The notes under the pieces were generated by a model, which was not told where the DNA came from, did no database searches, and worked only from the letters and a program-made list of their open reading frames with translations. Source: Podarcis liolepis (taxonomy: Eukaryota). From it: a DNA stretch of 64,000 nucleotides. The DNA lies in NCBI GenBank assembly GCA_965112155.1, contig OZ218105.1. One strand, written 5' to 3'. The stretch's first letter is position 1; each line of letters begins with the position of its first letter. Shown in pieces: positions 5,304 to 56,439 of this stretch. The position numbers and the translations under genes were made by a program.

Positions 5304-5362
5304 CCACTGGTTCCTGGTCTCTGGGCCTGAGAGAAACGCCAGTCTGTGTTAGGCTGTGCTTG
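5304..5362 (-). CDS. PCDHG: Protocadherin gamma constant exon 1 (59 bp), [19 protein letters not shown](G)
   Basis: Minus strand reads pyrimidine tract ...tttgtgtttctcttgcag | CAAGCACAGCCTAACACAGACTGGCGTTTCTCTCAGGCCCAGAGACCAGGAACCAGTGG | gtgagt; length and peptide match the mammalian gamma constant exon 1 ([20 protein letters not shown]). Not captured by the ORF track. Confidence 0.97.
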
Positions 5363-7739
5363 CTGCAAGAGAAACACAAAGAGAGGTTTAATGCTTCTAT
5401 TCCTAAAATGAAGCTCAGCTATAAAATACACACACACATGCACACACAAGCAGAGAACGCCATTATATGTTCCAAAATACTTCTAAAGAAGCGTGATTGG
5501 TTAACATGATAAGAAAGTAATCTAAATAATCTTGCAGAAGATAAGACAGTCAGAAACTATCCATGAATAATGAAGCATGAAATAAGCTTGAAGGGGCATC
5601 ATTTAAACCACAGAACACCAGAACATTAGGAATATTTTTTTTTGGGGGGGGGGGAGAAGAACAGAATTAATTGGTACTGAGAGAATACCAACATCTGAAA
5701 TGCTAATAGAATTTCCTAATTTATAATCTTTTCTGAAACAGGTCAGTGTTAGGGCTTTGATTTAATGTCTTCTGTTTCCTTTGATCTTTGGAGCTTTGCA
5801 ATCTTTTTCGCCCACTGAGATTAAAAATTCCATTTCCCACAACAATAATGATTTCTTTGAAGGCGCAACAGAAGACACTATATCAGAATAGACTGAGCCA
5901 TGTATTACTTTCCACCCACATTGTTGTATTATTAGAACAATGGACATTTTGTAAATAAAGGAGTACATAAAATGCCACTATGAGCAGCATGTCTGAATGG
6001 CTCTTTGTGATCACAGCTGAAAGACACAGTGTGGTTGATGCATGCTGCAAAACTCCAGATATCCTGTCAGTCTCCTCCATTAATCCTTCAGTAATAATAT
6101 TCCACACCATTAGAGAGATTTGCACCCGAACCGTTGTTTATGTGTTTTTTTCCTTAAACAAAATGGACAAACGTGTTTTAAGATCAGGATACAAGGGTGT
6201 AATCGACATCTTATTCAAGCAATGTCAAAATCAGAATTGATTCAGGTGAATCTGGACTCCAAGAACCCTGCAAATAAAAAACTATATGCCTGCAATCCAA
6301 ACCCCACTTGCCTGAGAGTAAGCCCAATTAAATTCAATAGGACTCATTTCTGAGTAGACATAGTTAGGGCTGAGACAATGTGTCCTACTACAATAGGAGG
6401 ATTCCAGCTTTTCTGATTATTGATCTGTGAACACTAAAGGATTAAAATATACTACTTGTGTCAGTTAAACAAGTTCGTAAATCTATTTATGTATGTGTAT
6501 GTGTAAAATTATCATATATGACAGTATATAGCATGTATAAATATACATATATTTCTCTGCAGACTAAATATGCAGAAACAAGCCTCCTCCTTTGAGTTAT
6601 TCATTGTGAACACTTACTTCCTCAGTTGCTTCAATAATTTGCAGAGCCAGAGGCTACAATAATCAAACCTTGAATCCTAAATTTAAACACCTAAATACAG
6701 GCAATTCTTTAAATATATTTTGAGCATCTTCAGCACAAAAAAACCCCTCACACACAACCTGTGGTTTTTCTGAAGTTTAGAAAATGGCACCTGTTTTTTT
6801 AAGTTTCTAAATGTGGATTTAGGCATTCCTAAAATGGTTAAGTTCCTGTCCCCAAGTCTCAAAAAGCTCAAATTTCAGCTATATTTCTTTACGAGGTGGC
6901 AAAAGCTGGAATGTGAAAGCTGTGTACGATAAGGATTGCAAAACAGAGTGTCATGTGTTGCAAAATACTGCATTCTTTCTGCACATAGTATCTTCATAGC
7001 GCCAGCAAAATTTAGAAGCAGGAAAGAAGCAAAAATGAAGTAAGAACAGTTTGTTAAAATTACTGATATGTAAATTTTGTGTTGTTGCTTTTTCTTAAAT
7101 AAGCTGAGCCTGCCCCTTTCACCAAGGGGTCACTGCTTCCTGTCCCTTGTGTTACCAATGGGAATTTTTTTAAAATTTTTTTATTTATATTTTAAAATGT
7201 ATTCTTGCTCACATTATAACACATCCAAGTAATTCAGTTAAAAATATACCTTCTCATTTGCAGTCACTCCTAGCTCCTGCCACTCTTATGGAAAGGGCTT
7301 GATGATGACCTCCTGTGCACTTCTGAAATGCCCATTCACTTCAATGGGACTTGCACAGAAGAACTTCCCAGTGAATGGTCATAAGATGTTTCCCCTACGG
7401 TGCTACTTAAGTGTAACTGTGATGTCACTAAATCATGTATTTATAGGACGTACTTGTTTTAAACGCTTGCAGGCTGCTTTTGGGGCAAAGACCCACTGAT
7501 GCAACATGTCAAAATTAAAACATGCTCAAAATGGCAAAGTAACACTAGCAGCTTCACAGTTTTCCCACAACATTACCTTAAGATGGTGATAGATCTGGAT
7601 TTGCCTGACAGTTTTACAGAACTCTGATAATGGTGGCAGTGAGGTGAGTAGGGAGTACTTTTTAAAATGAATCCAGCAACCCTCACCTTTTGACCCATCT
7701 CCTCACCATCACCACCATCACAGTCTCTTTTGCTAAAGG

Positions 7740-8140
7740 ATCCATTAAGCACATCTGTGCAAAACGATGCAGCTAAAGATGCCTCAACATATACACCCAT
7801 GTGGTCCCATTTCAGTCTCTTCCTTTGAACCTCTGCTCAGAGCTAACTTCTTCCATAAAGCTGTTGGTTTAAACCTCTGGCTTTCCTCTCCAGCCGAGAT
7901 GAGAGTGGAGTCAAAGTCTGTTCAGATCTGGCTTCTTCCCCAAATGTTTGCTGCACATGTAGAGAAGGTCTGGAACAGAGCTCGTTTGTAGCTGCATCTG
8001 CTCTCATTCATCCTTCGCTAAACTTGCCTCCCCCTTTTCTCTGACTACATTTAGGTCGAGAGCTGCTTGTGGCAGGGCCATGGCTTGTGCTCTTCTTTAC
8101 TCTGTAAAGTGCTGTGCACACGGGTGGCATAATAATAATT
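7740..8140 (+). mobile_element. Old L2-like LINE 3' end
   Basis: Ends tttaggtcgagagctgcttgtggcagggcc...ctgtaaagtgctgtgcacac...ataataataat, the layout of an L2-type 3' tail. Confidence 0.5.
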
Positions 8141-8855
8141 CTACTACTGAGTTTTTAAAAGCCTAACTGACAAGCAACAGTAGCAACCCAAACAGGACTG
8201 TGCATCCACCTGACATTATGTCCAGCATAGGGCTACCTAAACGTCCCATCAGCACATGGGTTTCCTCTTGCACAACAGGACTCCTCTTGCCTGTTGCCTC
8301 CCCCCTCCCCCTCCTGCTGTGACCACCTAACTCTGTCTGGAGGTTCCTCAACTCTTGGGAGCAGATTTGGGGAGAGTTTGTTGAACAGGTTGAGAGGAAG
8401 AATGGGAGGAGGGAAGCGGGCAGACCCCATTTCACAAGCAGAAATCCTTGCACGGATGGGATGCATGTGTTGGATTACCACCCTATATATTTGTTTTATT
8501 ATACCACCCTTTAATCATATTCCCAGGAGTCCCAGTCAAGAGCAACCACTGCACATGCATTCTCCTCTCACCCCAATTTACCACAGAACATCCTGGGGTG
8601 GGGGGAGGCAGCTGGAGAGAGTGTAGCATGGAAAGAAATGAAAGCCCTACATGCACCTTGTAAAAAGCATAACAGCTGCAAAATGAAGGAACCCCGGGAT
8701 GTCACCCTCCACAACATACACACGCATGCATACACACCTCATTTACCTCTTTACACCTAGCAGATGGAAGTCTATGGTAGATAAATATGGTAGATAAATA
8801 TGGATTTATGGATTGCAAGCAGAAATGTTTTAAGAATCACTTTAGTGTATCTTAC

Positions 8856-11291
8856 CCCATCAGAGGGACTCTGCAAAACACTGCCTGCCTGCTCAAAGGC
8901 AAGCATGCTTTCTGCTGTAGTGGAATGACTGAAAGGTTTAACAAAAAAGAATTCGCCCTGTTCAGACATTGGAGAGAGACAAGACTTGTAGTGCTGAGCT
9001 CCAGCTCCGCCCACTTCAAGGTATCTGATAAAGCCTTCGGGATGTGGGCGCCCAGTGAAATTTATGGTGGATTTCCTGTCTGTCCTCTTACTACAGCAGT
9101 GTGACATGAACCAGCTGGGGACACAGAGGCCAGATCTGAAGCACCTGGCCCCCACAATAACCAACATTACACAAGAGACCAGAGAGATGGCCACAAGAGA
9201 GATGATAAGGTAGAGAGTTAGGCTGGGGGCTCTGGAAGGTGATTTGGGGAGAAGGTCCAAGGACTTGGAAAAGTCCTGCACAGCATTATCCTCTGAGGAA
9301 ATCACAAGAACCAGTGAGGCTGAGAGAGACGGCACTCCATTGTCTCTTACTTCTATCACCAACCTGTGGGACACCCCAGGCTCCCTCAATGCCCGAACAG
9401 CCCGGATCTCTCCTGAGTGGCGTTCCACTTTGAACGGGGTGGCTTCATTGGCATCCTGAAGCAAACTATATGACAGCCAAGCATTGTGGCCACTGTCAGC
9501 ATCCACAGCCACCACTTTGGTCACCAGGAATCCAGGTTCCACCGGGAGCAGAACTGGCTGGTGAAAGGCAGAGCCCTTGGAGACTTGCGGGTGCACAATC
9601 ACCGGGGCGTTGTCGTTCTGGTCCACAACAAACAAGTGAAGAGTGGCTGTGCTGCTCAGGGGTGGGAAACCCGAATCCTTCACCTCCACTGCAACTTGAA
9701 AGACTTTCTCTTGCTCATAGTCAAGCATCCTGGATGTGTAAATGCTGCCATTCTCTTGGTTGATGTGGAAATAGGTCGAAATGGGTAAGCCATGATTTCC
9801 ATTGTCCACAATGGAATAAGACAGCTTGGAGTTGACACCTGCATCCGGATCTGAGGCTGACAGAGAAAAAACTAGAGTCCCAGGGGAAGTATTTTCCTCC
9901 ACATGGGCAGTGTATGAAGGGATGGAGAAAGTGGGTGCATTGTCATTGACATCTGAGACTTGAATAAATATGTTTTTGTGGGTGGATTTTTGAGGCATTC
10001 CAGAATCTGTTGCTTTAATTGTGATATTATATCCAGCAGCCTTCTCTCGGTCCAGGGGCCCATTGGTCACCAGTGAATAATGTCCCTTAAAGGAAGACAC
10101 CAGTTTGAACGGGATGTGCCTGGTAATCTCCAAGTGGACTTGCCCATTTTCCTCAGAGTCGTTGTCCTTTGCTTGGATCAGGGCAATGACTGTTCCTGTG
10201 GGTGCATCTTCTTGCACTGGGCTAGAGAGGGAGGTCAGCATAATCTCTGGGCGGTTGTCATTGACATCAACAAGTTCCACTCTGATGTTGCAGTGACCCT
10301 CCATGGCAGGGGACCCCTTGTCTTTTATGTAGATAGCTATCTCGTAAGCATTGGCTTCTTCGTAGTCCAGCAGAGCTTTGGTCCTGATCTCCCCTGTCTG
10401 GGGATCCAAGCTAAACAAGTCAAGGAGCTTGAGAGGTGCGCTATTGCTGGCTTTGAGGAAATACTCCATCTCTCCATTGGGACCTTCATCTAAGTCCGTA
10501 ACATTGAGCTTAGTTACAACAGTCCCCACCTGGACGTTTTCCTCCAAATAAACTTTGGACACTGGCGGGTCACACACAGGGGGGTTGTCATTTGCATCCA
10601 GGACGTGGACTGTCACCTGGGCAGTCCCAGACTGAACAGGATTCCCACTATCCAGAGCTGTCAGGACTAAGTGATGGACAGCGGCTTTTTCCCTGTCTAG
10701 AAGCTTCTCCAGCACAATTTCGGGCATTTTGACCCCGTCCCCCCTGACGTTAATGCTCAAGGCAAAATGTTCGCTTGGGCTGAGCTCATAGGTGGCAATG
10801 GAGTTGGAGCCCGTGTCCGGGTCTTCGGCGGCTTCCAGGCGCAAGCGGGTGCCCGGGTTGGCCACCTCGGTGATTTCCAAGGAAACCCTGTCCTTCGGGA
10901 ACCTGGGGGCGTTGTCGTTCACGTCCAGGATCTCCACCTCCACCCGGTGTAGCTGCAGGGGGTTCTCCAGCACCAGCTGGAGAGGGAAGGAGCACGTGGG
11001 GCTGGAGCTGCACAGAGCTTCGCGGTCCAGCCTCTCGTGGACCAGCAACATGCCGTCGGCGAGGTTGACATGGAAGTAGTGGCGCATCCCGTCGCTGACC
11101 AGCTGCAGGCGGCGAGCGGACAAGCTCCGCACGTCCACGCCTAGGTCCTTCGCCACGTTCCCCACGGAAGAGCCTGGGTCCCGGTCCTCTGGGATGGAGT
11201 AGCGAATCTGCGCGGGGATGAGCCCTGGCAGGGACAAGACGGCAGCCACCAGCGCCAGCAGCTGCCACGACCAGCTCTGCCCGCCGCCCAT
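8856..11291 (-). CDS. Protocadherin gamma C-type variable exon (last before the constant region; no mammalian positional counterpart)
   Basis: Intact ORF: signal peptide, six cadherin repeats (DRE, DxNDN, AxDxG), TM, variable cytoplasmic domain; first ATG 11291; phase-0 donor GATGGG|gtaaga at 8856. Confidence 0.93.
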
Positions 11292-11900
11292 GCCTGGCTC
11301 CTTTGCGCGCAAGGATGGCCGTCTCCAGCGGCTGCCTCTGCTCCAGGTATCCAGCCCGGGGGTGGCCGCTGCTGCCTCCGGACCCCGCCGCAGTCCGGTG
11401 CCCCCCGCCCCGCCCCCCAGGTCTGCTCCTGGCGGCTCCGGGGTGACCTGAGAGGTGCTGTGCAGCGGAAAGGCGCGGGCTGCAGCTGGAGAGGCGGGAG
11501 GGGGGAGCGGGGGGATTTTAAAGCGCTCGGATCAGCAGCAGCTCATTGGCAAAAGGAGCAGCAGAGAAAAGGGGTTGTGAAATGGATACAGACAAGCGGC
11601 AATTCCCTCCTCGGCGGCGGCGGCGGCAGCAGCAGAAGAGAAGCCCCTTCCCCGAAACGCACACACACCCTGCTGCTCCCCCCTCCCCAATCTCTCTTGC
11701 CACCAGTTTTCCCTCCCTGCGCTTCCCATTCCTTTCCCAGCGCAGCAGAGAGATTTGGAGGGCTGACCCAAGGGAGCCATTGGCCAGAAGAGCTCCCTTG
11801 ATGCCCCTCTTGGTGGAAAAGCAGGAATCGAAGGTGCAGAACGCAGACAGGGCGAGCTGCTGACGGCAGCTGTAACTCCAGGAGGGGGGAGGGGGCTACT
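10720..11900. promoter_or_regulatory. CpG-island promoter of the last C-type exon, with CCAAT box and (GGC)n(AGC)n tract
   Basis: High GC and CpG density over EC1-EC2 and upstream; sense-strand GCCAATGAGC at 11541-11550; no CSE-type GCCGCTGTTGRCC seen. Confidence 0.7.
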
Positions 11901-12160
11901 CTACCCTCCTGCAACCTCTTCACTTCAATCCCCTCCCTCCTCCCCTCCCCCTCCCCCCGCTCATAAAGAAAGAGAGGAAAATTAGGCACACAAAGCTTTT
12001 GAGCAGATAGGTTCAATGTATCACAGCCTATGCTTGAGACCACGCATTGATTCCTCACCCCCACCCCAGGCACTTCTCCTAGGTGCAGGGAAACTCAAAA
12101 GAAAAGGAAGGTGGTGCCATGGCTGGAACAAAATAGGGACACTACATGGAAAATCCTCAC

Positions 12161-14599
12161 CTTGCCAAAGAAGCTGGGTTCAGTGAGATTGCTGCAAGAA
12201 GCTGTCCTAAGTGTCAGATTAGGTTTCATGAATACAAATTCGCTAATGTCTGAGACAGGAGAAAAGCAGGATCTGTATCCACGGGCAGGGGGTCCAGAAG
12301 TGGCCACTTGCACTCCTATCATGGCATCTCCAGGGCTCAGCTGATAATGGCAATGTCCCATCACGTGATCCGAAGCATCTTGAAGCCCACCAGCTTTGCT
12401 TCCACAGCATCCAAAGATGGTAGATGTTGCACGTGAATCACGGCGGAGGCATCGAACTGCCAAGGCCACCAAAGCCATCAGCGAGATGGTGGAAATTGCT
12501 GCCAAGGAGATGATAAGGTACACAGTCAATGTGGGAGGTCCCTCAGTTTCCACTGAGTGAGCTGTTAACCCCAGAAAGGTTTCAGCGCTGCTCTCCTCCA
12601 AGAGCACCATCACAGTGACTGAGGTGGACAAGGAAGGATCACCTGAGTCTTTGACAACCAGGACAAGGTCCTGGGTAGGATTGTCTATGTCCTGCAATGC
12701 TCGCGTGGTCCTCACCTCCCCGCTACGGAGGGCCATGCTGAAAATACCAGGGTCTGTGGCTTGCTCTACATGGTAAGAGAGCCAAGCATTTCGCCCAGAG
12801 TCCAAGTCCACTGCCATAATTTTTGTGATTAAGGCATTGGCTGCAGTAGATCGTGGAATTCTGAACTGCACAACAGAATCTTTCCCAGTAAAGGGGAATC
12901 GAATCCAGGGTGCATTGTCATTCTGATCTAGGAGGTAGATGTGCACCATGATTCTGTTGCAGAGAGGAGGGGAGCCACCATCACATGCCTCCACCAGGAA
13001 CTGGAAATGATTCGTATGCTCGTAATCAAAAGGGCTCTCTGCAAAGACATCTCCATTTGTTGGGTTGATGGAGACATAAGAGGTGAGGTCCTCAATCAAT
13101 CCTTGCCCTGGGCTCGCCAAAACAGAATAAGACAAACGGGAGTTCTGGTCCTTATCAGAATCTGTGGCAGAAACTCTAAGCAGTACCACCCCCACTGGAT
13201 TGTTCTCTTCTATGACGGCTTCATAAAATGGCCTGTCAAAATGAGGTGGGTTGTCATTGACATCTGCCAGAGTTATGGAGAAAGAGGTGTGCTCAGAAAG
13301 AGGTGGATTCCCCAGGTCAAAGGCATAGATGGTGACGTTGTATTGCGGAGTGCTCTCACGATCTAGCTGCTCACTGGTGAGCAAGGAATACTGGTGCTCA
13401 AAGTCTTTCCGAAGTTTGAAAGGAAGGTTTCTGGGCAGATCACACCGGACTTTCCCTTGATCCCCAGAGTCTCTATCCTTGACATGTATCACAGCAACTA
13501 CAGTGCCAGGAGGCGCATCTTCACCCATAGAGCTGGAGAAAGAGGTGAGAATAACTTCAGGTGCATTGTCGTTGACATCTGTGACTTCTACCATAACACT
13601 GCAGTGTTCCTCCATAGTAGGGGAGCCCATGTCCTTAGCCTCCACTTCGATCTCATAGACATTAGCCTCTTCAAAATCCAGGCTCCCTTGGACACGGATC
13701 TCTCCCGTAGTCTCATTGATAGCAAATATCCTGCGCAAGGCTTCTGAGTTATGGCTGCTGAGGGAATACTGCACCTCTCCGTTAGGCCCTTCGTCCAAGT
13801 CTGTTGCGTTCAGCTTAATCACCAGGGTTCCTGGAGGAGAGTTTTCTACTAAGCGGGTATAATAAGTAGGTTTGTCAAAAACTGGATGATTATCGTTGGC
13901 ATCCAGAATGTGGACGGCAATTCGAATAGCGCTAGATTTGGGGGATATGCCCCCATCTTCAGCTGTCAGGACCAAGTGGTGGACAGCGATGTGCTCCCTG
14001 TCCAGGGGTTTCTCCAGTACTAGCTCTGGGAATTTGGTGCCATCTGTACGTGCCTTCACGTTGAGGTTGAAGTTCTCATTGGCGCTCAGGTGGTAGGTCT
14101 GTAAAGTGTTAGTTCCTACATCTGAATCCTGTGCGTGTGGGATGGGGAAACGGGCACCCAGTGCAGCCAGTTCATAGATCTGCAGAGATATTGTGCTACT
14201 TGAGAACACAGGCGCATTGTCGTTGATATCCAGAATCTCCACTTCGATGCGATAGAACTCCACTGGGTTTTCAATAGCAAGTTTGAGATGCAAGAAACAG
14301 CGCAGGTTCTGCCCACAGAGCTGCTCCCTGTCTATTCTGTCATTGACTATTATGATTCCAGTGTTCACATTCACAGAGAAATACTGGGAGTCAGAATCAG
14401 AAAGCACCTGCAGATTGGCAGCTGCAAGCTTTGTCACATCCATTCCTAAGTCCTTAGCAACATTTCCTACAAAGGCTCCTCGAGTGAGTTCCTCTGGGAC
14501 AGAGTAACGGATCTGTGCAAAACAGTCACTCAGAAACAGACAGAAGGCAAAGGCATGCACGAGTCCCAAACGCCAGGCAGAGTTTTCTGTTCTGAGCAT
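12161..14599 (-). CDS. Protocadherin gamma C-type variable exon (extra, downstream of gammaC5)
   Basis: Intact six-EC ORF with TM; first ATG 14599 (MLRTENSAW); phase-0 donor GGCAAG|gtgagg at 12161. Confidence 0.93.
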
Positions 14600-14829
14600 C
14601 TTTCTGAAATCCACAGCAGGAAGCTCTAAAACTGCAAAACAGGAGCTAAATATAGCAGGCAGTATCTCTTTAAACCTCTGGAGGATTCACCACCTATCTC
14701 GAAGAAATATGAAATATACGAGAGGAAAAGGGTCTGTGGTCAGTGTTTACCTCTCTCATTCATTGTTTTGGTTTGAGAGAGATTGACACAGGAGGGGAGT
14801 GGTACACACCGCAGATCTTCAATGCTAAC

Positions 14830-14915
14830 CTCCTGCTCATTGGCTGAGACTGCCTTTCTATTTATCCAATCAGCAGCCTCCTTCCCAGGACAGCAACACA
14901 CGCACCAATCCAAGT
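14830..14915 (-). promoter_or_regulatory. CCAAT-box cluster upstream of the 14599 exon
   Basis: gctcattggc 14835-14844, ccaatcag ~14866, ccaatcc ~14905, about 240-310 bp upstream of the ATG. Confidence 0.5.
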
Positions 14916-15724
14916 CTGGAAGTTGCTACTGTGTGAAAAAGGACCGCGTAACCTGCTGTTTTTAACCTAGAGACACCAGGCTAAACGGCAGACAATGGAA
15001 AACAAAGCCCAAAATCTTGTCTGGTTTTGGCTTCTGTGCTAGCTATAGGACTCTTAGAAGCATACGCTGCAAAGAAATGTTTGCTCTAAAAGCACACTGA
15101 CTCCTCACGTATTACATCCACAACAGAACAGCTGATTTGTCATTTTTATGAGCAAAGATAATTCAATGAATTCTAGGAAACAATAGTTCCTCTTACCCCA
15201 TCCTAAGCTTCCAGATCAATCTCTTTTAGTTATTTCTAGGCTACCAAATTAATATCTAGCTTTATTTACTGGTATTTCAGAAGCCTTAGACTCCACCCTT
15301 CCAATGTAAAAACTCAAGGGAGTGCTTGGTTTTTCTCAGGGAAAGAAATCTAATTGTATGGGGGGGGGGACTTAGCAGTTGCAAAAATATGAAGAGCTAA
15401 CTTTGTGACAGGCAGCATTTGAAGGATGATTTTAAATTATCATTTTCTTATTGTTCACATCCTAGTTCCAGTCCCTGCTCCCCTACCCACTTTCTCTCAT
15501 TAAAAGGCAGCAATTTGTGGGAAGAAATCAATGTAATTTCCCCCCCTCTCCTGCTCTCTCTTTCCCAAGGCGTTATGACTATGTGGTGCAGGGTTAGGTT
15601 ATGAAGAAGGAGGCCCCACCCTATTCTGATAACCGATGAATCAGCCCTCAGTCAAGTTTCAAAGTGTTACTGGAGATACCAGTTTCATGTGGGAAAGGAG
15701 AAAAAGGACAAAATGCCACCTCAC

Positions 15725-18175
15725 CTGCCTGGGATGGTTCAGTGTATCAGTACGAGATAAGAAAGTGTCAAAGTCTCTCGTCAGAGTACTTGGTTGAGGA
15801 TAATCCACAGGCCTCATAAAGGTGAAATCACTTCTGTCCGAGCCGGGAGAATAGCTGGCTCTATAGCCCTGGCTCTGGGAGTCTGTGGGCCTGAGTGTGA
15901 CCTCCATGTATTTCAATGTGCCATCTGAGTTCAGTTGAAGCTTAGGGCTGGCTTGTTTGAAAACATCCCTGGCAGGAGCACCACTCAGGCTGCAGCAAGA
16001 AGAACCCCTGGCTTTTTTATTCCGAAAGCATTTTGCAGACAAGATGATGAACGTAACGAGGGACACAATGCTAACTGCCACCAGCGCAATAATCAGATAG
16101 AGGGTCAGGTCAGATTTTTCTTTGGGGTGAGTCAGGAAATCACGAGACTGGGGCCTTTCCTCAGTTACTTTATCCTCCAATGAGACCACGATGGTGACGG
16201 TGGTAGACAAAGGTGGTTCTCCATTGTCCTTCACTAGTACAAGGATTTTCTGTGCTGGGAGATCTGTTTCCTGGAACTCCCGAACAGTCCAGATTTCCCC
16301 AGTGTAGGGAGCCACTCGGAACAAGGAGGGGTCAGTAGACTGGGAAAGCAAGGAGTAAGAAAGCCAGGCATTGTGGCCAGAGTCTGCATCCACGGCAGTG
16401 ACTTTGGTGACCACATAGCCTGCCGATGCAGACTGAGGGATCCTCTGGATTGCAGACAGTTCCCGACCAGTCACTGGGTGCAAAACAACAGGCGTGTTAT
16501 CATTCTGATCCATTATGAAGAGGTAGACAGTGACACTGGAGCTCAGTTGGGGTGACCCAGCATCATGCACCATGATGGGGATTTGCAGCACCTGCAGCGT
16601 TTCATAGTCAAAAGAGTGCTGGGCATAGACATTCCCATTGTCTGGGTTGACGTAAATGAAAGAAGAGACTGGAGCATCTTGAATGGGGCTTCCTGCCACT
16701 GAGTACGTGAGCCGGGAATTGTCCCCCTCATCAGGATCAGAGGCCGCCACAGTGCATAGCAGAGAGCCAGGTGGATTGTTCTCCTTCAAGAAGGAGTTGT
16801 AGAAGGGCTGAGAGAAGTACGGGGCATTGTCATTAACATCTGAAATGTTCAGCAAGATGGTGACATCTGTGGTTAGAGGTGGGGACCCTGAATCTTGGGC
16901 CGTCAACTTGATAGTGTATCGAGAAACTGTTTCTCTATCCAGTTTCTCAGAGGTAATCAAAGAATAGTGGTTTTCAAAAGATTTAATTTTAAAGGGCAAG
17001 TTTGGTGATATTTGTAAGCTCACCTTTCCATTGGCACCTGAATCTTGGTCTCGCACATTGAAAAGCCCTACCACTGTCTCTAAAGGGGTGTTTTCTGGCA
17101 CGGGGTTTACCAGAGAGGTAAGGAGAACCTCTGGGGGGTGGTCGTTCTCATCTTCAACTTCCATTTGGATTACACAATGGCCTTCCATTTGAGGAATGCC
17201 CTTGTCCCTGGCCCTTACATGAAGCTCATAAAAATGAGATTCTTCGAAATCCACAACTCCTTGGACCCGGATCTCACCTGTGTGGGGATCCAAGCCAAAC
17301 AACTTCTGGATGGAATCAGGTGTGTGGATTCCAAAGGAATACTGTATTTCCCCATTAGAACCCGCATCAGGGTCAGTTGCATTAAGTCTGAAAAGCAAAG
17401 AGCCTACAGGGATGTTCTCCGAAAATCTTATCTTGTACAAAGGAAGGTCAAATGCAGGCTCATTATCATTATTATCCAGGACCACAATGGTGATCAGAGC
17501 TGTTCCTGACAGTACAGGGTCCCCCCCATCACAGGCAGTCAGGATGAGCTGGTGTTCCGATTGTTGCTCTCGGTCCAAAGGTTGCTCTAGCACCAGCTCA
17601 GGTAAAAGCTTGCCATCGTTCACATTCTTTACATTAAGTGAGAAGTGGGGGTTGGGGCTGAGTCGGTAGACACTGACTGCATTGGTCCCCACGTCCGCAT
17701 CATGAGCGCTCTCCAGTGGAAAGCGAGACCCTGTGGCGGCAGACTCTGCTATCCTCAGCACAAGCTTGGGGGTGAGGAAACCGGGGGAATTGTCATTTAA
17801 GTCCAGGATCTCTACCTCCAGGTGAAAGAGCTCCAAGGGATTTTCTATGACTACTTGGACTGGCAAAATGCACCCCGAGCTTGCTCCACACAGGGTCTCT
17901 CGGTCTATCTTTTCATTCACTATCAGAGCACCGTTGGCCAAGTTAACTGCAAAGTACCTCTTGCTCTCCTCAGAGCCCAGCCTCAGCCTGCGCCGGGAAA
18001 GGTCTGCCACCGTTAAGCCCAAGTCCTGAGCCACCTTTCCCACCACGGTGCCCAGCTCCGATTCCTCCACCACGGAATAGTGGATCTGTCCTGTAACCAA
18101 CGCCCGGCTGAACAGCAAAAACAAACCCAGTACTTGCCATTTGAAAGAGGGTTGCCGGGACAAATGTGGCTCCAT
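15725..18175 (-). CDS. PCDHGC5: Protocadherin gamma C5 variable exon
   Basis: KWQVL..GQIHYSVVEESELGTVVG.VAQDLGL..RRLRLGSEE and DGTLKYMEVTLRPTDSQS match human gammaC5 as recalled; donor AGGCAG|gtgagg at 15725, phase 0. Confidence 0.92.
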
Positions 18176-19704: not shown

Positions 19705-22155
19705 CTCGTTTGGCTCTCGGGAAAGGCTGCAGGCCAGAAGTGTGCCTGTGCTGTTGATATCCTGCTGAGTGACTGGTGTAGCTATCCTGAAATTCCTCCC
19801 TTCTGAAAAGTGGGTCTGGCCAGGCCTTAGGAGGGTAAAAGGAGAAACAACATCTCCCCCAATGAAGGCTGTAGGGAATTCCATTTTTTCCTCCTGGCTC
19901 AAGCGTACTGAGAACGTGTCAAAGTGTCCTCCCACAGGAATAGAGTTCCTACCCTTCAGGTCGCTGGTCCAACCCACATCTGAGTGTCTTCCTTTCAATC
20001 TTTTAAGACACTTCATAGCTAAAAACACAAAGGCCAGAGCAGAAAGTCCTGAGATTGTGATTAGAGCAATAATGAGTTGCAAGGTCAGGTGAGACAGCCC
20101 TTCTTGTTCCATGCTGGACTCTCTGAGGTCTGCTGCGCCCAACTCATGCTCATGCTCTAGATTAAGAATCAGAGTGGCTGTGGCAGACAGAGGTGGCTTC
20201 CCATTGTCCAAGATCTCAACAACCAACTCTTGGGAAGGGGCGTCTTGTTCCAGGAGGGCTCGGACGGTTCGGATCTCTCCTGTGAACGCTGAGACTTGGA
20301 AAAGGCTTGGGTCTGTGGCTTGCTGCAGCTTATAAGAAACCCATGCGTTCTGCCCAGAGTCTGCATCCACAGCTGTGACTTTGGTTACCAGGTAACCTCC
20401 TTGTGCAGAAAAAGGAACTGGCTGCTGGGCTAGGACCCCCTTCTTGGTTACAGGGTATACAACGAGAGGAGCATTATCATTCTGGTCTATGATGAAGATG
20501 GAGACAGTCACATTGGCACAGAGTGGAGGAGAACCATTATCCTTAGCTTGAATCTGGAAAACCAGTTGCTGGGTTTGCTCATAGTCAAATGAGCAGCCAC
20601 TGTAGATAGTACCGTTCTCCATAACATAGACATAGGAGGAAATGGGCATTCCATTTATGATATGCTCCACTAATGAATAAGACAGGTGTGAGTTCTGCCC
20701 CAGATCAGGGTCAAAGGCAGATATAGAAATGATTGGCAGCCCCAGAGCATTGTTCTCAGTTACGAGGGTCTCATATGCAGGCTGTGAGAAGTGGGGTGGG
20801 TTATCGTTCAGGTCAGATATATTTACAAGGAAGTTTCTTTGACTGGAGAGAGGCGGAGAACCAGAATCCGTAGCTGTGATCATAACTTTGTACTGTGAGA
20901 TTTCCTCCCGATCTAGGGGGCCACTGGTGATCAAAGAGTAGTGGTTCTTGAAGGAAGGTACAATCTGGAAGGGGACATCTGCAGGGAGATGAAGCTGTAC
21001 TTCTCCATTTTCCCCAGAATCTGCATCACTGACTCTGAGGAGCCCTGCTGTGGTACCTGGGGGAGCATCTTCTGGTATGGTGGTGGTGAGGGAAGTGAAC
21101 CTAATGATAGGCTCATTGTCATTCACATCCACTACCTCCACTAAGATGTTGCAGTGTGCATCCATGGAAGGTGACCCTTGGTCTTTGGCCCTCACATCAA
21201 TTTCATACAATGTGTCATCTTCGTAATCCACACTTCCCAGGACTCTTATCTCCCCAGTCTCCTCATTAAGGCTGAACATTTTCCGGATTTTCTGTGGAGT
21301 GTGGCTGCTGAAGGAGTAGGAAACTTTCCCATTTGCCCCCTCATCATTGTCTGTAGCTTGTAAAAGTATCACAAGGGCCCCCACTGGGGCATTTTCTAGT
21401 AGGCTAACTTTGTACACCGACTGGTTAAAGACAGGTGGATTGTCATTGGCGTCTATGACTGACACGAGAATCTTTGCTGTCCCGGATTTAGCAGGAACTC
21501 CTCCATCCAGGGCTGTAAGCACCAGGGGGTAGCGCTGCTGCTGTTCTCTATCCAGCGCCTTCTCTAACACCAGCTCAGGTTTGCTGCCGCCTTTATGTGA
21601 CTTAACACTGAGGCTGAATTGTCCACGTGGACTCAGCTGGTAGGTGCTGACTGAATTCATGCCAACGTCCAAATCTTCAGCACTTTCCAGGGGGAAGCGG
21701 GCCCCTGGCATTGCAGACTCTGCTATCTCCAAATGGGTGAGACTGGTAAGAAAAACTGGGTCATTGTCATTCACATCCAAGAGCTCAACTTCCACACGAT
21801 GGGAGGCTGTTGGGTTTGCAAGTAGGAGCTCCAGATAGAGCAGGCAGTGTAAGCTGGGCCCACAAAGCTGCTCTCGGTCCAGCCGTTCTTTCACGACCAA
21901 GACACCATTTGGCACCTTGGCTTCGAAGTACTTTTCAGCAGAGCCAGCCATGATCTGCAGCTGTCGGGAGACCACCCGGGCAGCATCTAGACCCAAGTCT
22001 TTAGCCACATCCCCAACAAAGGCCCCAGGAGCTAACTCCTCAGGAATCGAATAACGGAGCTGGGTCATCTCTCCAGCACACTGGAGAGAGACAGAAACCA
22101 AAAGCAAAGCTCTTACTTGCCATGGCAGGAGTAGTCTTTCTTCCAGAGACAGCAT
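19705..22155 (-). CDS. Divergent C-type gamma variable exon between the gammaC4 relic and gammaC5 (orthology uncertain)
   Basis: Intact six-EC ORF; first ATG 22155 (MLSLEERLLLPWQV); donor AACGAG|gtgagg at 19705, phase 0. EC1-EC2 lack gammaC4 hallmarks, though EC5-TM has some C4-like words (FDYEQTQ, DLRESS). Confidence 0.9.
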
Positions 22156-23039
22156 AATGTCGCCAGAATTTCCTCTTCCTTTGCTGGACTTCTGTCCTCT
22201 CTGATTCCAGCACAGCCAAGGAAACAACACAGAATCCCGGGTTAGATCACGCAAGGGATGAGAAAGCGGCGCACCATCTGCATCTTTTCTCTGTTTTTCT
22301 TCCACAGAAAACAGCAGCGGTGCCTAGTCCGTATCGGAATCAAGAGGGGAGGAGCTTTGTTGTCCATCAAAGCAGATACAGGGCTCCTGGAATCAAGGAA
22401 GCGCCTGGCTGTTTGCAATGGACCACTCATTCTCCCCCTCCCCAGCTCCAGCAATGGGGTGGGGGAGGTCTTAAAGCGCCAGTGCAAATGTTGAAGAGCT
22501 GGGAGCCCATTCGCCAGCTGTCAGTGACTGGATTTCCCAAGATAATTATATGAACAATAAATCCTATGTCATTACAAGCTTTTGAATTCATTAATGAATG
22601 TCACAAGCATTTAAATTCAATAATGAACACTCTTTGTTTGGAATGGTTGGGGTTATAAGCTAAACCAGCAAACTGCATATTTTGCAGATTTTTTAAAAAA
22701 TAGAATGCAACAAACACCAGTGGCTGCACAATTAAGTGATATACTGCCATTTGCTGGATATAAGATCATGTTAAAAGATCCATTGACTGTCTGCCTGAAT
22801 TTCCTTTAAATGAATGGCATTCAATAATCGATGCAGGAGAGCTCTTCAAAGCTCATTCCAAATGGAGTATACTAGAGTCTCTCCATATACCCTTTCCTGA
22901 ATTTCAGGAGTTTTGCAGCCAGTGCACAAAACAGAATAAACCATGACATCACAAAGGAAATTTTTAAGCCTCTGGAGTGAAAGGTTAGGAGGAGCAAGGT
23001 TAAAAAGAGTTTTATGAGCAAGAACCTGGTCCCTGATGT

Positions 23040-24350
23040 TCCCAACAAACAGCTTCCATAGTGGAGACAACTAAGATAATAGTTAGGGAAGGGGTCAGGT
23101 CAAGGAGATTCATGGACTTCCTGGAAAAGATGAAAGAAATCTAGGAATAGAAGTATTTTCTCTCCCCTAAAGGTAGACAATGCCTTCTGAATGTTGTCAT
23201 GGTAGACTTCAGTGAAGAGGTAGATGAGGCACACTGCTGTTGAAAAAGTGGTGTCCTCTGTCTTATGTGCTTGCACTGGAAGCACCTGGATTTGCTCCTA
23301 GTGGCATCATGTGTGGTTGAGAAGCTGGGCACCTCCCGTGTGTGAGATTTCACAGTAGAAATGAAACAGACAGAATGTATTTACGGTGATGGTTCTTCTC
23401 CAGGAGTACTGTGCAGATAATATAGGTTGTTCGTATTGCATTTGTTATTCTGTTAGCTAGATTGGTCTTTACTGTCCAGAGGAGTATTTGTGACTAAAAC
23501 CTGGTTTTGAAACACGGCCCATGGCTTTAAACGCAAGCATCTGGGAATACTGGCAATCACTGCTGCTCCACTGCCTCTGGAGTGAGCTGCTTGCTATGTG
23601 CAGAGACATGCTCTCTGGCACGGACAAAGTTTGTTTTGACCAAAAACAATATCTTTTGGGTATTTGGGGACATAAAAAATGTGCACCACCATATGTTCCA
23701 TGGCAAAGACGTCCACCTCATTTTATCATTAAACTTATAGCTTCTATTTTATAGGCAAGCCTCCTTTTCACCACAGCTGTGACTTCCCAATAGTCACATA
23801 TGACCCAGCTGGAGTATAGTTGCATCGGGTGGAGTCCCCCTATATATGGAATTGCCATACTAAGTAAGGTGTTGCTCCAATATAGAGCTTTCAGGACCAA
23901 GCAATGCTCAACTTCCTTAATTCCCGGTCAATGTTTTTCAAAGACGCAAGTTCAGATCTCTTCACATCAACAGACAAGAAAGTCTTAACAAGTAAGTGAT
24001 GATGGAACTGCTGCTTGTTCTACTAACCAAGGAATGTTAATTTCTCTGATTCTAAATATCTCTCTGTGTCACAGGCCCTGGAGAAGGTAGGAATCGTCAG
24101 CACCTGCATTTCCCACTTCTGCCTGATACATTTCCATGGATCTTCTTACATCCATTTTGACTCCATGAAGGAGCTTGACTCACATGTACACAGGGACTCA
24201 CAGTTTACAGGTGCCTTTCAAAGAAGTAAAAATCTATTTCCACAGTTATCATCTCACTAATCAACTATTATATAGCAGTCGTTTGGGGATGCAATTTCCC
24301 GTTCTTTGCTATGATTTCTATGTAACCTAAACTCACCCTTCTAGTCCACT
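23040..24350 (-). pseudogene. Decayed gammaC4-like variable exon (frameshifts, stops, large deletions)
   Basis: Colinear minus-strand motifs: SLGYI (~24330), PVNCESLC (24188-24211), EMYQAEV (24114-24134), DVKR (23957-23968), DRE..HCLVLKAL (~23885-23930), YKFND..GG..AMEH (23693-23739), VPES (~23615), FQNQVLVTNTPLD (23474-23512), TM-like LTPSLTIILVVS (~23065-23100). Confidence 0.75.
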
Positions 24351-27300
24351 TGGACTAGTGATGGTCAGGGATTGGCACAGTGCCTGGGCAGAGAGCGCAG
24401 AACAATTAGCAGCATCCACAAAATTCCTGCAGGGTGGAAGTACCTTGAGATTCTGGACTCAGGCTACATCAAGAGCAATTTTCTTCAGCTCAAGAGTTTG
24501 TATTTGTATATTACAACACCAAAAATCACAATATCAAATACATTCCTTGACTTACTGATTCTGCCTTTTCTAATGCCTGAGAATACACATTAAAAAAACT
24601 TAAGGATACTATTCTTTATAATGAATGTTCTTATCTTGATAATACCAATGTCTTTATACACTCTTGCTTCTCTTGAATTCACCTGCACATAACATTCAAC
24701 TTTGCAATCCTATTTATTTTCAGAATCCATTTAGTCGCAAATAGCACGCATACTGTACAGATATTTCTAACTAGTTATATACAGTCTTGGTTCACAGAGC
24801 TACGAACGCTGCATAGCAAGCTAAGTGGCTTTGAAAGATGCAAAGCCACTTGGCTTGGTTTAACTAACACACATGAATTATACTACAGGACACTGTGCTA
24901 AACTTCACAGGAAACAGTATTTGATGAGAAGCATTCAAATCAGTTCCTAATGCACACTTGTGCCATTTAACTTAATGGAATGGAAAAGAAATTCTGTATT
25001 CTAAACCCTTGTCTTTAATGAAATCACAATAAATATTTGGTGCACAGGAAAACATTTCAACAATGGAAATGGGAAACCTTGTAATTAGGATTTGAGAGGA
25101 GTGGGGAGACTGAAATCTCACTTCAAAATCCGAAATATGATTGAGTTTGATTGCTTTAGACTTTTTGGACAGTTGATGACTATTTTCTAGGTTCAAGATT
25201 GTAGACAAGCAAGCAAGAGGGAAATTTTAAATGTTGGGGGTCAACATACAGTAAGTTTCATTACATGCTCCCATCCCCCTACACTAAACTCATTTGTGAA
25301 AGGCACCATAAGATCTTGAGTGGGGTCTCTGGGCAGGGATTGTGTATGTTTATTGCTGTCAAATCTCATCCAGTGGCAGATGGCTAGACAGCGTGATGTT
25401 AGCCAGCTCTTTCCGCTCTTTGTCTTCCATTATCTTTACAGAAAAACAAATATGGTTACTTTCTTGCATTGCTCTAGATTAGATGATAAAGTTTCTGATC
25501 TTGGATTCTCCTGTGTTGCTTTGGCTGCATATATGCTCATCTTAATTTTCAAAGTGAGATTTCTTCTTTCCAATCTCAATGTTCTATAATTCAGGGATGC
25601 TTGTTACAAACTAGAAGACCAGTGTGTTTGGCAGTAAACCCCACAGCATATGAAGCTGTCGCCTGCATTTATTTCCGTGCACAAAGCGCAGCAGGTCCTG
25701 GCCTCTTGCAACATATTTTCAAGCACATATGATTTTAATAAGTACAGCCTCCTCAACTGAAAATGTAATGAACACACTAAATGTTCACATTGTTTCAGTA
25801 ATACGTGAAGGAGCCCTGATTATATTTGGTGAGAGTCTGCCCTGGCTTTTGCATATTTTAGAGCCAGATGGCCTACTAATGAAAAGCCTCTGTGCATCAT
25901 TCTAACTTTTGTTAAAAACACTCAAGAAACTAATGGTTCTGCCTGTACAGATTAAGTGTGGGATCTGGTGCAGCTTTAAGAGTACGTCAGCTTAGGGTCA
26001 TCATATTGTGCTGGAATTGCTAATGCCTATTGACAGGACACACACGGACACACAAACACACCTCTCCTCCGCTGTCTCTTTTGCCCGCCCTATTTTTCTG
26101 ATCATAGTCATTTTCTTAACAATCTCCCCAGACTATGTAATTTTGGGTAGGAAAACGTAGCTAAAACAATTTCCAAGGATCTCAGGGTTCACATGTCAAC
26201 CATTTCAAGCAAAGCAACACGTATGGAAGTTAAGAAAGCCTAATTATGAATTGATAACAGCAATGCAACCCTTTTAGCATCAAAATAGTACTAATAAACA
26301 ATAATAATTTAAATCTCAACAACAAATTAAAAGTACAGATGAAATCACTAATCAGTTATCGATGAATTAACATCATCATCATCATTATTATTACATTTAT
26401 AAGGCTGCCATATAGCAGTTTTCTGGGTGGCTCACAAACCAAACCAAGCAGTAAAATACAGCATATTAAAAACCTATGATGAATTAATTAAAAGTTGATG
26501 CACAATTTAAAACTCAAGGTATAAAATCAAAGGAAGCTACATACAAAATATCAATTACTGTTGAGAATGTGTATATATATTTCCCACACAGCCGAAAGGT
26601 TAGGTACCACATTGCTCTAAAACATGTTTGGATATCAGATGCCAAATACTAAATGCCAAATTAACCAGGTACAAAGACTCAGAACCAGTTCACTGAAATG
26701 ATGGCCCTGAAAGCTATTCACAAACTATCAGGGGTGAGAACTGGCCTGGAGCCAGACTCTTTCTTGCAACCTCTGCTTCACCCTTGCAATCTCTGGGCTT
26801 CCTGGTCCTTCTTCCAGCACCCTCTCCACATAAAGCTGCAGTTTATCACTGTACCCTAAAACAACTTCCTGCCTATAGCATCTAATTGTGTAGCAGAATG
26901 CACCCTGAGCATGTATCTACACTGCAGATTCAAACTGGTGCAGCAAAATCATTCCCAAGGAATTATAGGAATTGCGCTTCTGGCTCAGATCTCATTGAGG
27001 TTGTACAGCTGAGTCTGGGCTGTACCACTTCAGACTGCAGGTGGGGACTCAAGATGGCTGTATGCTCCTCCATGCCAGCCACCCCACGGTTAGGATCCAT
27101 CTTCCTGACATCTAGCTTTGACAGAGCTCTGAATTCTTTGTACGCAGGAACATTCAAAGATGTGGGTTTCATCTGCAATCTGCAATGGTACAGCCTAGAA
27201 ACAGATTAACCATCTTGGTGAGAACTGGGCCTCTGTGAGGAAATCTTACAAACAAGACACACAACGTGCTCTCTTCAGAGTGAAAATGTTCATGAATATT

Positions 27301-28152
27301 TCAAAGGAAACTAGCATGTACATACAATCCCAGCAATTAACTTATTCACTGCCAGCCTTCTGCTGTTACACAATAACAAGATAAAATGAGTGTCACACGA
27401 GTGCTACCTAATGTTATCAGTGATCAGAATATGAGAGGAGCCTGGGAATGAAGGGAATTTGATGCCTCCTGGGCAGTTTGCCTATGCCTGGTATTTTAGG
27501 GGGGAAGACTGTTGGACAGAATGGGGATGGGGTGCAAGACAACAACATTTAAGTCAAGCTGAAAGTAGCCTGCCACCTGTGATTCCCAAAAGAAAGCTGA
27601 AGCCTGAAACTTTAGGTAAAACCTTGAGACTCAGAAACCCTAAAGCACAATAGCTTTGTGCAGCTGGTGGATGAGTCAGAAAAAAGCTTACCTATGTAGG
27701 TGTTGGCCAATGTGCTTTGTAGGCATTGTGAGAAAGAACCTGGCTATTGTTGTTGTTATTACTCCTCCTTCTCCTCTCTACACAGTAGCTTTTCTGGATT
27801 GCAGGCAAAATCTCTAGTTAATATTTACTTTCATACAATAACATATTGCATTATCTTTTCACTTATTGACTTTTGATATGAACTCTATGATGGGGCTGCC
27901 TATGTTTCCCTGGACATTCAAAAGGGGACACATTATCTTAGTATCGTAGCATCTCTACTATCTCCCACCTGATCAGGGACAACATGGGGGGGGGAGCTGA
28001 GCCCCTCCAATTAAGCAGGGGAATGGGCCCCCTCAATTTTATGCGGCCTGCAAGCCACCAGAAGGCAATCCTGTATAGGGAAGGGAAGTTTTTTATATAT
28101 GTTGGAAGCTGCCCAGAGTGGCTGGGGCAACTCAGTAAGATGTGTGGATATA

Positions 28153-28411
28153 CCGTATTTTTCGCTCTATAAGACGCACCAGACCACAAGATGCACCTAG
28201 TTTCTGGGGGAGGAAAACAAGAAACAAAATATTTTGAATCTCAGAAGCCAGAACAGCAACAGGGATCGCTGCGCAGTAAAAGCAGCAATCCCTCTTGCTG
28301 TTCTGGCTTCTGGGATAGCTGCACAGCCTGCATTCACTCCATAAGACGCACACACATTTCCCCTTACTTTTTAGGAGGGAAAAAGTGAGTCTTATAGAGC
28401 AAAAAATATGG
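28153..28411. mobile_element. Tc1/mariner-superfamily (pogo/Tigger-like) MITE nested in an older repeat
   Basis: TIRs ccgtatttttcgctctataagac / gtcttatagagcaaaaaatatgg with TA duplications on both sides. Confidence 0.8.
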
Positions 28412-30111: not shown

Positions 30112-32556
30112 CTCAGAGGGCACCAGAAGCCTCTTATTTGTGCTTATTAGCTGGTTATATATTGCAGGGTCACATCTTGTGATAGTGCTCTGGCGGCTCC
30201 CCATAGGGCTGGGAGCAAAGGGCATTTTGTACAGAAGTTCACTCTGGCGAGAGTCCGTGGTGAGGACCTGCTGGTAGAAGTTTGGAGGAGTAAATCCACT
30301 CCGCACAGTGTCTATGTGGTTGAAAGGCCCCGGGGTTCTATAAAGGGAGCTTCTGGAGGCTTTGAATATATCCTTGGATTGCCTCCACTTGTAAAATTTA
30401 TAAATCCCCACCCCAACCACGGTGACAAAGAAGGCCACTGAGATCAAGATGACAGCAATGATTAAATAGAAAGTCAAGTGCTTCTTTGTTTGGGGTGTAG
30501 TGGACACAGCAGTCAAGTCTGTCAGTGTCTCCCTAGATGTCTCTGCTACATCTACAGCAAGGGTCACTGTGGAGGACAAGGCAGGCTCCCCATTGTCTTT
30601 TATTAAGATGAGCAATGTTTGCTTGCGAGAATCTTCCTCTTGCAGAGAACGAGCTGTGCTTACCTCCCCAGAATGCAGCCCCACAGTGAACAGCCCTGGG
30701 TCAGTGACCTGAAGGAAGGAATACGAGAGCCAGGCATTGTAACCAGAATCTGCATCCCAGGCCACAATTTTTGTGACCATGTAGCCAGGGCTGACTGTGG
30801 GTGAGATGACTTCTGAGAGCGAAGAACTGTTGTTTGAGTTTGGGTATAAGAGCCTGGGTGCATTGTCATTCTGATCTGTGACAAAAACATTGACAGTGAT
30901 GTTAGTGGCAAGAGGCGGGAGGCCAGCATCACGAACCTGGACCACTAGCCTGAACTCCATGGTGCCCTCATGGTCCAAGGGGACTAGGACATATATGCTG
31001 CCATTTTCCCGGTTAATAGAAAAATACCTGCCCGCCAAGTCTCCCGAGGACATGGGACTATCCAGGATGGAGTAGGAAAGGTGGGAATTCCGGTTCAGAT
31101 CCGGGTCAGAGGCACTGATGTTAAAGATCAGGGTCCCTGGAAGGTTGTTTTCCTCCACATACACATCATAGGAGGATTGTGGAAATTTAGGAGGGTTGTC
31201 ATTTACATCAGATACTTTAACCAGTATTTGCTTCTCTGCCATGAGTGAGGGTGTGCCTGCATCCTGAGCTGTGATGGTGATGTTGTACTCAGAGACAAGT
31301 TCCCTGTCCAAGGGTCCTTTGGTCTGTAAGGTATAATAGTTTTTAAGGGAAGAGCTGAGGGCAAAAGGGATCCCAGAAGGTATAAAGCAATTTACTAGGC
31401 CATTGTCACCAGAGTCCTGATCCGTGACACTCAGCAACGCAATCACAGTCCCTGGAGCCGCGTCTTCTGGTATTGGGCTGTACACCGACGTCACTGTTAT
31501 TTCTGGGGTGTTGTCGTTCACATCCACAATCTCTACCAGCACTTTGCAATGAGCGACACCAGGATTTGAACCCTTATCTTTTGCCTGGATATAAATCTCA
31601 TAAAATTTGGCTTCTTCAAAATCCAGCAACCCCTTCAGCCTCAGTTCTCCAGTGGCAGAGTCTAGGGCAAAGAGCTGTCGGATTCTGGCAGGGGTGTGAC
31701 TGCTGAAAGAGTACACAATCTCCCCATTGGGACCTTCATCCAGGTCGAAAGCTCTGGTTTGGACAACCAGGGTGTTCAAGGCTGTGTCTTCTTTCACGCT
31801 GGCTCTGTAGATGGACTGGTTGAAGACAGGGGCGTTGTCATTTGCATCCAGGACGTCAACCAGCACCTGCAAGCTGGCCGATCGGGGTGGGGTCCCTCCA
31901 TCCATCGCCGTGAGAACCAGCTGCACTTCCCGCTGCTGCTCCCGGTCCAGCTCTTTCTCCAGCACCAGCTCCGCATACTTCGTCCCGTCGCCTCGCGTCT
32001 GCACGTCCAGCACGAAGTGCGGGTTGGCGCTGAGCTGGTAGGTCTGCAGAGAGTTGCTTCCCACGTCGGGGTCCTGCGCGCTCTCCAAGGGGAAACGCGC
32101 TCCGGGGGTCACCGACTCGCTGATCTCCAGCTTCATCTGCTTGCTCTGGAAAGCCGGGTCGTTGTCGTTGACGTCCTGGATCTCCACGGTCACGCCGTAC
32201 AGCACCAGCGGGCTCTCGGCCACCACCTCCAGGCTCAGCGCGCATGGCGAGAGGGCCCCGCAAAGTTCCTCGCGGTCGATGCGCTCGCTCACCAGCAACT
32301 TCCCGCTGCCCAGGTCCACCTCGAAGTACTTTCGTCCGCCGCCCGACACCACGCGGAGGTTCCTGGCGGGCAGCTGGGCGAGATCGAGGCCCAGGTCGCC
32401 CACCACGTTGCCCACCGAAGAGCCCCTGGGCATCTCCTCGGGGATGGCGTAGCGCGTGGCGGCGAGCGCCCGCTCCGAGACGCCCAGCCACAGCCAGAAG
32501 CCCACGACGGGCAGCCATCGCGCTCTCGGCCGGCTCCTTCCCGCGGCGCCTCTCAT
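30112..32556 (-). CDS. PCDHGC3: Protocadherin gamma C3 variable exon
   Basis: EIYIQAKDKG.NP..AHCKVLVE, ITVTSVYSP, SSLKNYY, VAWDADSG and YKWRQS..SSLYRTPGP match human gammaC3 as recalled; first ATG 32556; donor TCTGAG|gtaatg at 30112, phase 0. Confidence 0.95.
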
Positions 32557-56218: not shown

Positions 56219-56439
56219 TACCTGAAATGTTTGATGCCAATGGACAGTTTTCTGAAACTCTTCCCTCAATACCAGTAGATTTTTTTTACTTTGGCTACTC
56301 ACAACAATGTTTCAGTACATTTTCCAAATAAAGGAGGAAATGTGCCGCTAACAATTAGGCATGTAGATGCATATGCAGAGGATACAACAGCTTGCCAATA
56401 GGGCAAAGTTGAAAACATTTATACTACATCTATCACCAA

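Follow-up and report, generated by a model that had tools for sequence, protein, structure and literature searches.

Protocadherin gamma-c6 and gamma-c7 between gamma-C5 and the constant region in the lizard Podarcis liolepis

We analysed a stretch of 64,000 nucleotides of Podarcis liolepis (contig OZ218105.1, assembly GCA_965112155.1; hereafter the window), whose minus strand carries a clustered protocadherin gamma locus in its 3' part, with eight intact variable exons and constant exon 1. In the order of transcription, three gamma-b-like exons are followed by C3, c4, C5, c6, c7 and constant exon 1. The last two variable exons had been singled out in an initial annotation of the letters as extra C-type exons. 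We identify them as the lizard gamma-c6 and gamma-c7, two C-type isoforms of old origin. Related lizards transcribe them; splicing to constant exon 1 is likely, and so is their loss on the mammal line. To this reading we assign a probability of roughly 0.93. The finding is real, was correctly read and is already known, as the five-exon gamma-c set and its history of loss were published for the anole in 2009 (Jiang et al., 2009; PMC2764143).

Two intact exons with named anole counterparts

The frame of c6 opens with an ATG at 14599 and runs to the phase-0 donor AAG/GTGAGG after 12161; that of c7 opens with an ATG at 11291 and runs to the phase-0 donor GGG/GTAAGA after 8856. Each is a single large exon that codes for a signal peptide (N-terminus judged by eye), six extracellular cadherin (EC) repeats, EC1-6 (Pfam Cadherin_2 and five Cadherin matches), one hydrophobic membrane helix near residue 694 and a variable tail, with a Cadherin_C_2 match of 36.1 bits in c6 and of 30.4 bits, slightly below the 31.5 cut-off, in c7. 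The two exons stand in tandem on the same strand, upstream of constant exon 1, and their phase-0 donors are used in transcripts (contigs that are probably RNA). These are the features of gamma variable exons, and the claim of two complete ones between gammaC5 and constant exon 1 stands. Both are also 3'-terminal, single-copy and outside the gamma-a/b clade (support 100/99), as expected of C-types; in the tree they group with c4 and C5, at a weak node (87/66).

The identification of the upstream exon (18175-15725) as gammaC5 is equally sound. Its ectodomain is 64-67% identical to marsupial and whale C5, against 46-52% for the other C-types, and it falls in the same clade as mammalian C5 (99/99). 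Moreover, it scores 465 bits against PDB 4zpn, which we take to be mouse gamma-C5 (the database title reads only 'MCG133388 isoform CRA_f'), against 317-342 bits for the other four C-types. The strong divergence that had been noted for the two exons is borne out as well: ectodomain identity is 47% between c6 and c7, 48% and 47% to C5, and 48% and 50% to C3, respectively, and 47-51% across the other C-types.

The best non-lacertid match of c6 is DAA06629.1 ('protocadherin gamma c6 isoform', Anolis carolinensis; 722/813 identical), and c7 matches DAA06630.1 ('gamma c7 isoform', also Anolis carolinensis; 739/812 identical). Over the whole exon this amounts to 89% and 91%, against 43-47% to the other C-types of the window; each anole isoform is the best match over the whole exon and shares a clade with its counterpart (100/100), as orthologs do. 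Among lacertid models the c6 protein is identical at 810/813 residues in Podarcis muralis, 809/813 in P. raffonei and 804/813 in Zootoca. DAA06629 and DAA06630 are GenBank third-party annotation (TPA) records, and the exons were described and named in the anole by Jiang et al. (2009; PMC2764143); the suspicion that extra C-type exons might already have been reported for non-mammals was thus right. According to the same paper, anole and coelacanth have five gamma-c exons each (c3-7 and Lm-gamma20-24). Of the anole exons, c3 and c5 are orthologs of human genes, and c4, c6 and c7 have no human ortholog; c7 was paired with Lm-gamma24, c5 with Lm-gamma23 and c4 with Lm-gamma22, and c6 was left without an ortholog. 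Differential loss rather than duplication is held to have shaped the group (PMC2764143).

Use of the donors in probable transcripts

Four of 24 listed runs were compared over 5600-15200, namely one raw-read run and three contig runs, each of the latter from a different study and under a different species label, with RNA status assigned automatically. Contigs end exactly at 8856 in 3/3 contig runs and exactly at 12161 in two of the three. Contig depth is confined to c6 and c7 except for some short matches of repeat-like character, one piece of 151 bases (5753-5903) and another that lies upstream of c7 (a contig of run X1, 11646-11807). The contigs were presumably assembled from 31-letter words. 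If several exons converge on one downstream exon, the letters left loose past the match should number 30 minus the count of last bases common to the converging exons, that is, 29 for c7 and 28 or 27 for c6. We counted 29, 29 and 8 at 8856, and 27 and 28 at 12161; four of the five contigs fit. In Zootoca, Podarcis and Pogona, RefSeq models splice each of the two donors to constant exon 1, and such a junction is likely for the window exons too.

Alternatively, the two exons could be intact and yet unspliced or silent, or they could be single-exon genes of the beta kind, their frames continuing across the donor to an intronic stop. Both frames do continue past the donor to a stop, as do those of all variable exons in the window, and several public models end there; coverage of c6 is low and patchy, with none at the donor in run X4, and the raw-read RNA run (X23; other species label, about 12% read) has almost no depth on either exon and is uninformative. 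Against this, five contigs from three studies stop at the exact predicted donor base, the bin just past the c7 donor (8489-8809) has no depth, and the c7 donor keeps its position (residue 812) in bird, turtle and crocodilian models. We consider silent or read-through exons very improbable, and retain transcribed exons with a likely junction to constant exon 1.

The initial annotation also gave both exons promoters of their own. Upstream of c7 lies a GC-rich stretch with three CCAAT-type boxes; the region upstream of c6 likewise has three CCAAT-type boxes, and no match to CGCT[GA]. By analogy with the family, each exon would have a promoter of its own.

Age of c6 and c7

A maximum-likelihood tree of ectodomains was built under LG+G4, without a site mixture, from 46 rows and 641 columns: the eight window exons, 30 fetched proteins and eight units cut from longer models. 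Chimeric public models were left out, and the tree took in neither mammalian C4 nor Lm-gamma24. The c6 clade has eight rows (100/100; lizards, pig-nosed turtle, gharial, rhea, junco and the newt Pleurodeles), the c7 clade nine (100/100; lizards, tortoise, crocodile, duck, emu, caecilian and axolotl) and the C5 clade ten (99/99), including mammals, amphibians and the coelacanth. The tree gives no firm branching order among these three clades. An axolotl c6 was found as well (60% over 790 amino acids). The order C5-c6-c7 recurs in fused gene models of partridge, rail and skink, C5-c6 in those of alligator and sea turtle, and c6-c7 in those of snapping turtle and gecko. Because each has amphibian orthologs in its own clade, both c6 and c7 are older than the amphibian-amniote split, some 350 million years ago.

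Since c6 and c7 follow directly after C5, and their tails have a loose motif in common with it, one might take them for recent, squamate-specific and fast-diverged duplicates of gamma-C5. A tree constrained to unite the squamate C5, c6 and c7, however, is 974 log-likelihood units worse (approximately unbiased (AU) test, p 2.3e-10), and c6 and c7 each have amphibian orthologs of their own. A clade of all tetrapod C5, c6 and c7 without coelacanth C5, which would correspond to c6 and c7 arising from C5 once the coelacanth line had branched off, is rejected too, more weakly (p 0.015). We see next to no chance that such a recent duplication took place. The view of c6 and c7 as ancient isoforms, proposed at the outset, is upheld by the separate 100/100 clades and the AU rejection: set among other vertebrate C-types, neither is nested as a lineage-specific duplicate of gammaC5.

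The c6 orthologs outside lizards go beyond the 2009 anole paper, and a literature search with little cover of subscription journals found no published statement of them. The C-terminal 246 residues of c6 were also searched against 50%-identity representatives, and 27 previously unseen members of the 150 hits were screened together with seven earlier models. The matches were mostly fused multi-exon models and Fat-like proteins, and among them no new ortholog-level c6 or c7 unit came from coelacanth, lungfish or fish.

The motif Y.SC.SP.S...EF.F.KP, initially pointed out as common to the two cytoplasmic tails, is indeed present in both and in none of the other six intact window exons, but it is not special to them. 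In its strict form it occurs in 7/8 c6 rows and 2/9 c7 rows, and a looser form occurs in C5 of lizard, goose, turtle, three mammals and coelacanth. Given this spread in C5, the motif is an old feature common to c6, c7 and C5. As a mark of kinship between c6 and c7 it was rejected, given the few c7 rows with the strict form and the loose form in C5. The c4 tail is without the motif of C5, c6 and c7.

Absence from mammals

Mammalian candidates were drawn from three protein lists, the best 120 of 4075, 5468 and 7931 matches, two of the lists having been scored over a limited set of candidates. Among the 47 mammal-named proteins picked from them, which include marsupials, platypus and echidna, none is more than 48% identical to c6 or 47% to c7, and five match C5 at 62-65%. 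The loss of c6 and c7 on the mammal line, as first suggested in the initial annotation, is likely on this evidence, and Jiang et al. (2009) argue for loss as well (PMC2764143). No frog ortholog of c6 or c7 was among the matches listed (best 120 per list; no search was aimed at frogs). An expanded C-type-like group is reported for the frog Xenopus (PMC4978886).

Most automatic names make c6 and c7 orthologs of mammalian gamma-C5, which we rejected on their 47-49% identity and separate clades. Another possibility is that one of the two is a displaced ortholog of mammalian gamma-C4, so that only one isoform was lost in mammals. The best EC1-4 structure match of both is gamma-C4 (7jgz; 442 bits for c6, 437 bits for c7), and the tree holds no mammalian C4 sequence. 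On the other hand, all five window C-types score similarly against 7jgz (437-468 bits), with c6 and c7 lowest; true orthologs stand at least 120 bits above the rest, as do C3 (Table 1) and C5 (see above); and no human ortholog of c4, c6 or c7 was found by Jiang et al. (2009; PMC2764143). On score, we rejected c6 and c7 as gamma-C4 orthologs (437-442 bits against 460-468 for the other three C-types), and a displaced gamma-C4 among them is highly unlikely. The loss of both isoforms remains our preferred reading. Indeed, no window exon scores as a gamma-C4 ortholog. At 460 bits, the c4 exon (19705-22155) does not outscore C3 or C5; in the tree it pairs with a coelacanth exon (98/98), in agreement with what Jiang et al. 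(2009) reported for anole c4. In the fused models of rail (P0380) and alligator (P0421), C3 leads directly into C5 with no c4-type unit between them; this suggests that birds and crocodilians may be without c4 too, though automatic models can skip exons.

Several points weigh against the identification and history of c6 and c7 set out here. The junction with constant exon 1 is inferred, as the acceptor at 5362 lies outside the compared interval of 5600-15200; the three contig runs are RNA by automatic guess only, and one of the five donor contigs has 8 loose letters instead of 29. Reverse transcription PCR in the anole covered 'selected' variable exons, and c6 and c7 are not named among them (PMC2764143). 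The loss in mammals rests on annotated proteins from best-match lists, not on genomes. No coelacanth ortholog of c6 or c7 was recovered among the tree rows or in the representative search (Lm-gamma24 was not among the sequences). Finally, the anole c7 model is nine residues longer than the donor in the window predicts (821 against 812). The window donor agrees with the contig ends, and the variable part of the anole TPA record (P0245) overruns the donor of lacertid contigs and of other species' models, including an Anolis RefSeq model; the donor in the TPA model is probably mis-set.

A second donor inside c7

A second phase-0 donor, GAA/GTAAGA, lies within c7: it follows codon 647, with 9351 as the last exon base, in EC6 and ahead of the membrane helix. 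It is spliced to constant exon 1 in RefSeq models of six lizard species (780-781 amino acids; 6/15 members listed) and five turtle species (769 amino acids; 5/15 members listed). In two further turtle models (803 amino acids) its partner is an acceptor 34 codons short of the exon end, where the window carries a CAG that ends at 8958. In run X1 two contigs meet exactly at 9351 (overlap 9351-9380), as expected from a branch; in runs X4 and X5 the contig continues through 9351. The product of the internal donor would have no membrane helix (best 19-residue hydropathy 1.46 against 3.05).

Food for speculation is whether c7 also makes a secreted form, a conserved and functional soluble protein in which EC1-5 and part of EC6 are joined to the constant domain. 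If so, the soluble protein could compete in c7 self-recognition or serve as a ligand for it, and may have been kept since the lizard-turtle split and lost in mammals together with the exon. Against a soluble function, the cut falls inside a folded domain, and models place internal sites elsewhere in other species (631 in Zootoca, 630 in Rhineura, 536 in two owls and a flycatcher). The 647 donor is used by 0/7 crocodilian members and by no bird member among those listed. Additionally, c7 is the exon closest to the acceptor, a place that favours both the use and the detection of leaky donors; the models are automatic, possibly with few reads behind them; and short internal-donor transcripts of mammalian gamma-C3 are a precedent. 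We regard a conserved functional soluble form as unlikely; nothing on the c7 internal donor or a secreted form was found in the literature searched.

Other features of the window

Coordinates are collected in Table 1. The constant region is represented in the window by constant exon 1, whose acceptor (...CTCTTGCAG) and donor are both readable in the sequence and whose residues agree at 20/20 positions with the beginning of the constant region in Podarcis. The three gamma-b-like exons are 72-77% alike and have bat gamma-B5 as tree partner (100/97). A profile search of the eight inter-exon intervals found no exon relics in the c7-constant, c6-c7, C5-c6, c4-C5 and C3-c4 intervals, its matches being confined to the gamma-b region. 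There, a broken gamma-b-like pseudo-exon lies at about 48774-50200, with cadherin matches in three frames and some 700 bases between the pieces. At about 55900-56660 on the minus strand, between two gamma-b exons, the profile matches over a short length of its membrane-helix region (E 3.6e-06); this is possibly another relic, its place being estimated from the frame position. The C3-to-c4 interval (22156-30111) measures 8 kb, and the other C-type spacings 0.9-1.5 kb. A short interspersed repeat in the intron at about 6290-6370 is matched by many unrelated contigs and reads.

Table 1. Features of the protocadherin gamma locus in the window
Feature	Position	Strand	Basis
gamma-C3 variable exon	30112..32556	-	score with mouse Pcdhgc3 (4zi8) of 429 bits; remaining four C-types, 295-309
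gamma-c4 variable exon, reptile type, not ortholog of mouse gamma-C4	19705..22155	-	tree and structure scores
gamma-C5 variable exon, ortholog of mammalian C5, upstream landmark	15725..18175	-	identity, scores, tree
likely c6 promoter	14600..14920	-	three CCAAT-type boxes at -244 to -310
gamma-c6 variable exon, coding part, 813 amino acids	12161..14599	-	phase-0 donor after 12161; anole match; contig ends
likely c7 promoter or 5' region	11292..11800	-	GC 0.66, CpG observed/expected 0.57, three CCAAT-type boxes
gamma-c7 variable exon, coding part, 812 amino acids	8856..11291	-	phase-0 donor after 8856; anole match; contig ends
internal phase-0 donor GAA/GTAAGA in c7	9345..9353	-	sequence, RefSeq models, contigs of run X1
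gamma constant exon 1, 59 nt, inferred common acceptor	5304..5362	-	residues identical to the Podarcis constant region

Possible function and value for annotation

How c6 and c7 might work can be pictured from the family. In a review (PMC7811963), each gamma variable exon is described as having its own promoter and being spliced to three constant exons; EC5-EC6 mediate the cis pairing of clustered protocadherins, and EC1-EC4 their strictly homophilic binding in trans; and C-types are expressed constitutively or by cell type. By analogy, c6 and c7 would each be driven by their own promoter, with the donor joined to constant exons 1-3. The product would be a neuronal surface receptor that crosses the membrane once, pairs laterally by way of EC5-EC6, recognises the same isoform on the opposite membrane with EC1-EC4 and signals through the common tail. 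Expression would likely be broad or by cell type, as for mammalian C-types, and not by random choice. Because each is only 47-50% identical to every other isoform, c6 and c7 would each have a separate recognition specificity, and are likely to add two fixed specificities to the repertoire.

The value of the finding lies mainly in annotation. Public models call c6 and c7 'gamma-C5-like', 'C4-like' or 'C3', and many fuse neighbours. In dozens of models from birds, turtles, snakes and monitors, under the names 'PCDGM' or 'gamma-C5', a C5 or c6 front is fused to a c7 back; such chimeras are artefacts of annotation and conceal c6 and c7 in databases. Beyond this, c6 can now be dated, on the sequences compared, to before the amphibian-amniote split. 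Finally, gamma-C4 is the one critical isoform in mouse, required for neuron survival (PMC6957209). Because no window exon scores as its ortholog, c4, c6 or c7 are candidates for its job in reptiles and birds.

Comparison with known gamma clusters

The closest known system is that of the anole, an iguanian, the window species being a lacertid. The c6 and c7 of the two lizards are orthologs at the identities given above, with the same clades, and both lizards have five gamma-c exons. Two differences concern what has been described: the anole paper left c6 without an ortholog, whereas salamander, turtle, crocodilian and bird c6 orthologs are given here, and its main text does not mention internal donors, one of which is present in the c7 of the window. 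The coelacanth also has five gamma-c exons, Lm-gamma20-24, as does the window lizard. Two adjacent Latimeria pieces pair with c4 (98/98) and C5 (99/99) in our tree, and a c6 ortholog is neither in PMC2764143 nor was one found here. The mammalian C-type gammas C3, C4 and C5 have the same exon design and the same constant exon 1, and they likewise close the variable array on its 3' side. Of these, C3 and C5 are matched by one-to-one orthologs among the window exons, and c6 and c7 differ from mammalian C5 at the level of paralogs (47-49% identity). The mouse has three gamma C-types and the window lizard five, of which only two are common to both.

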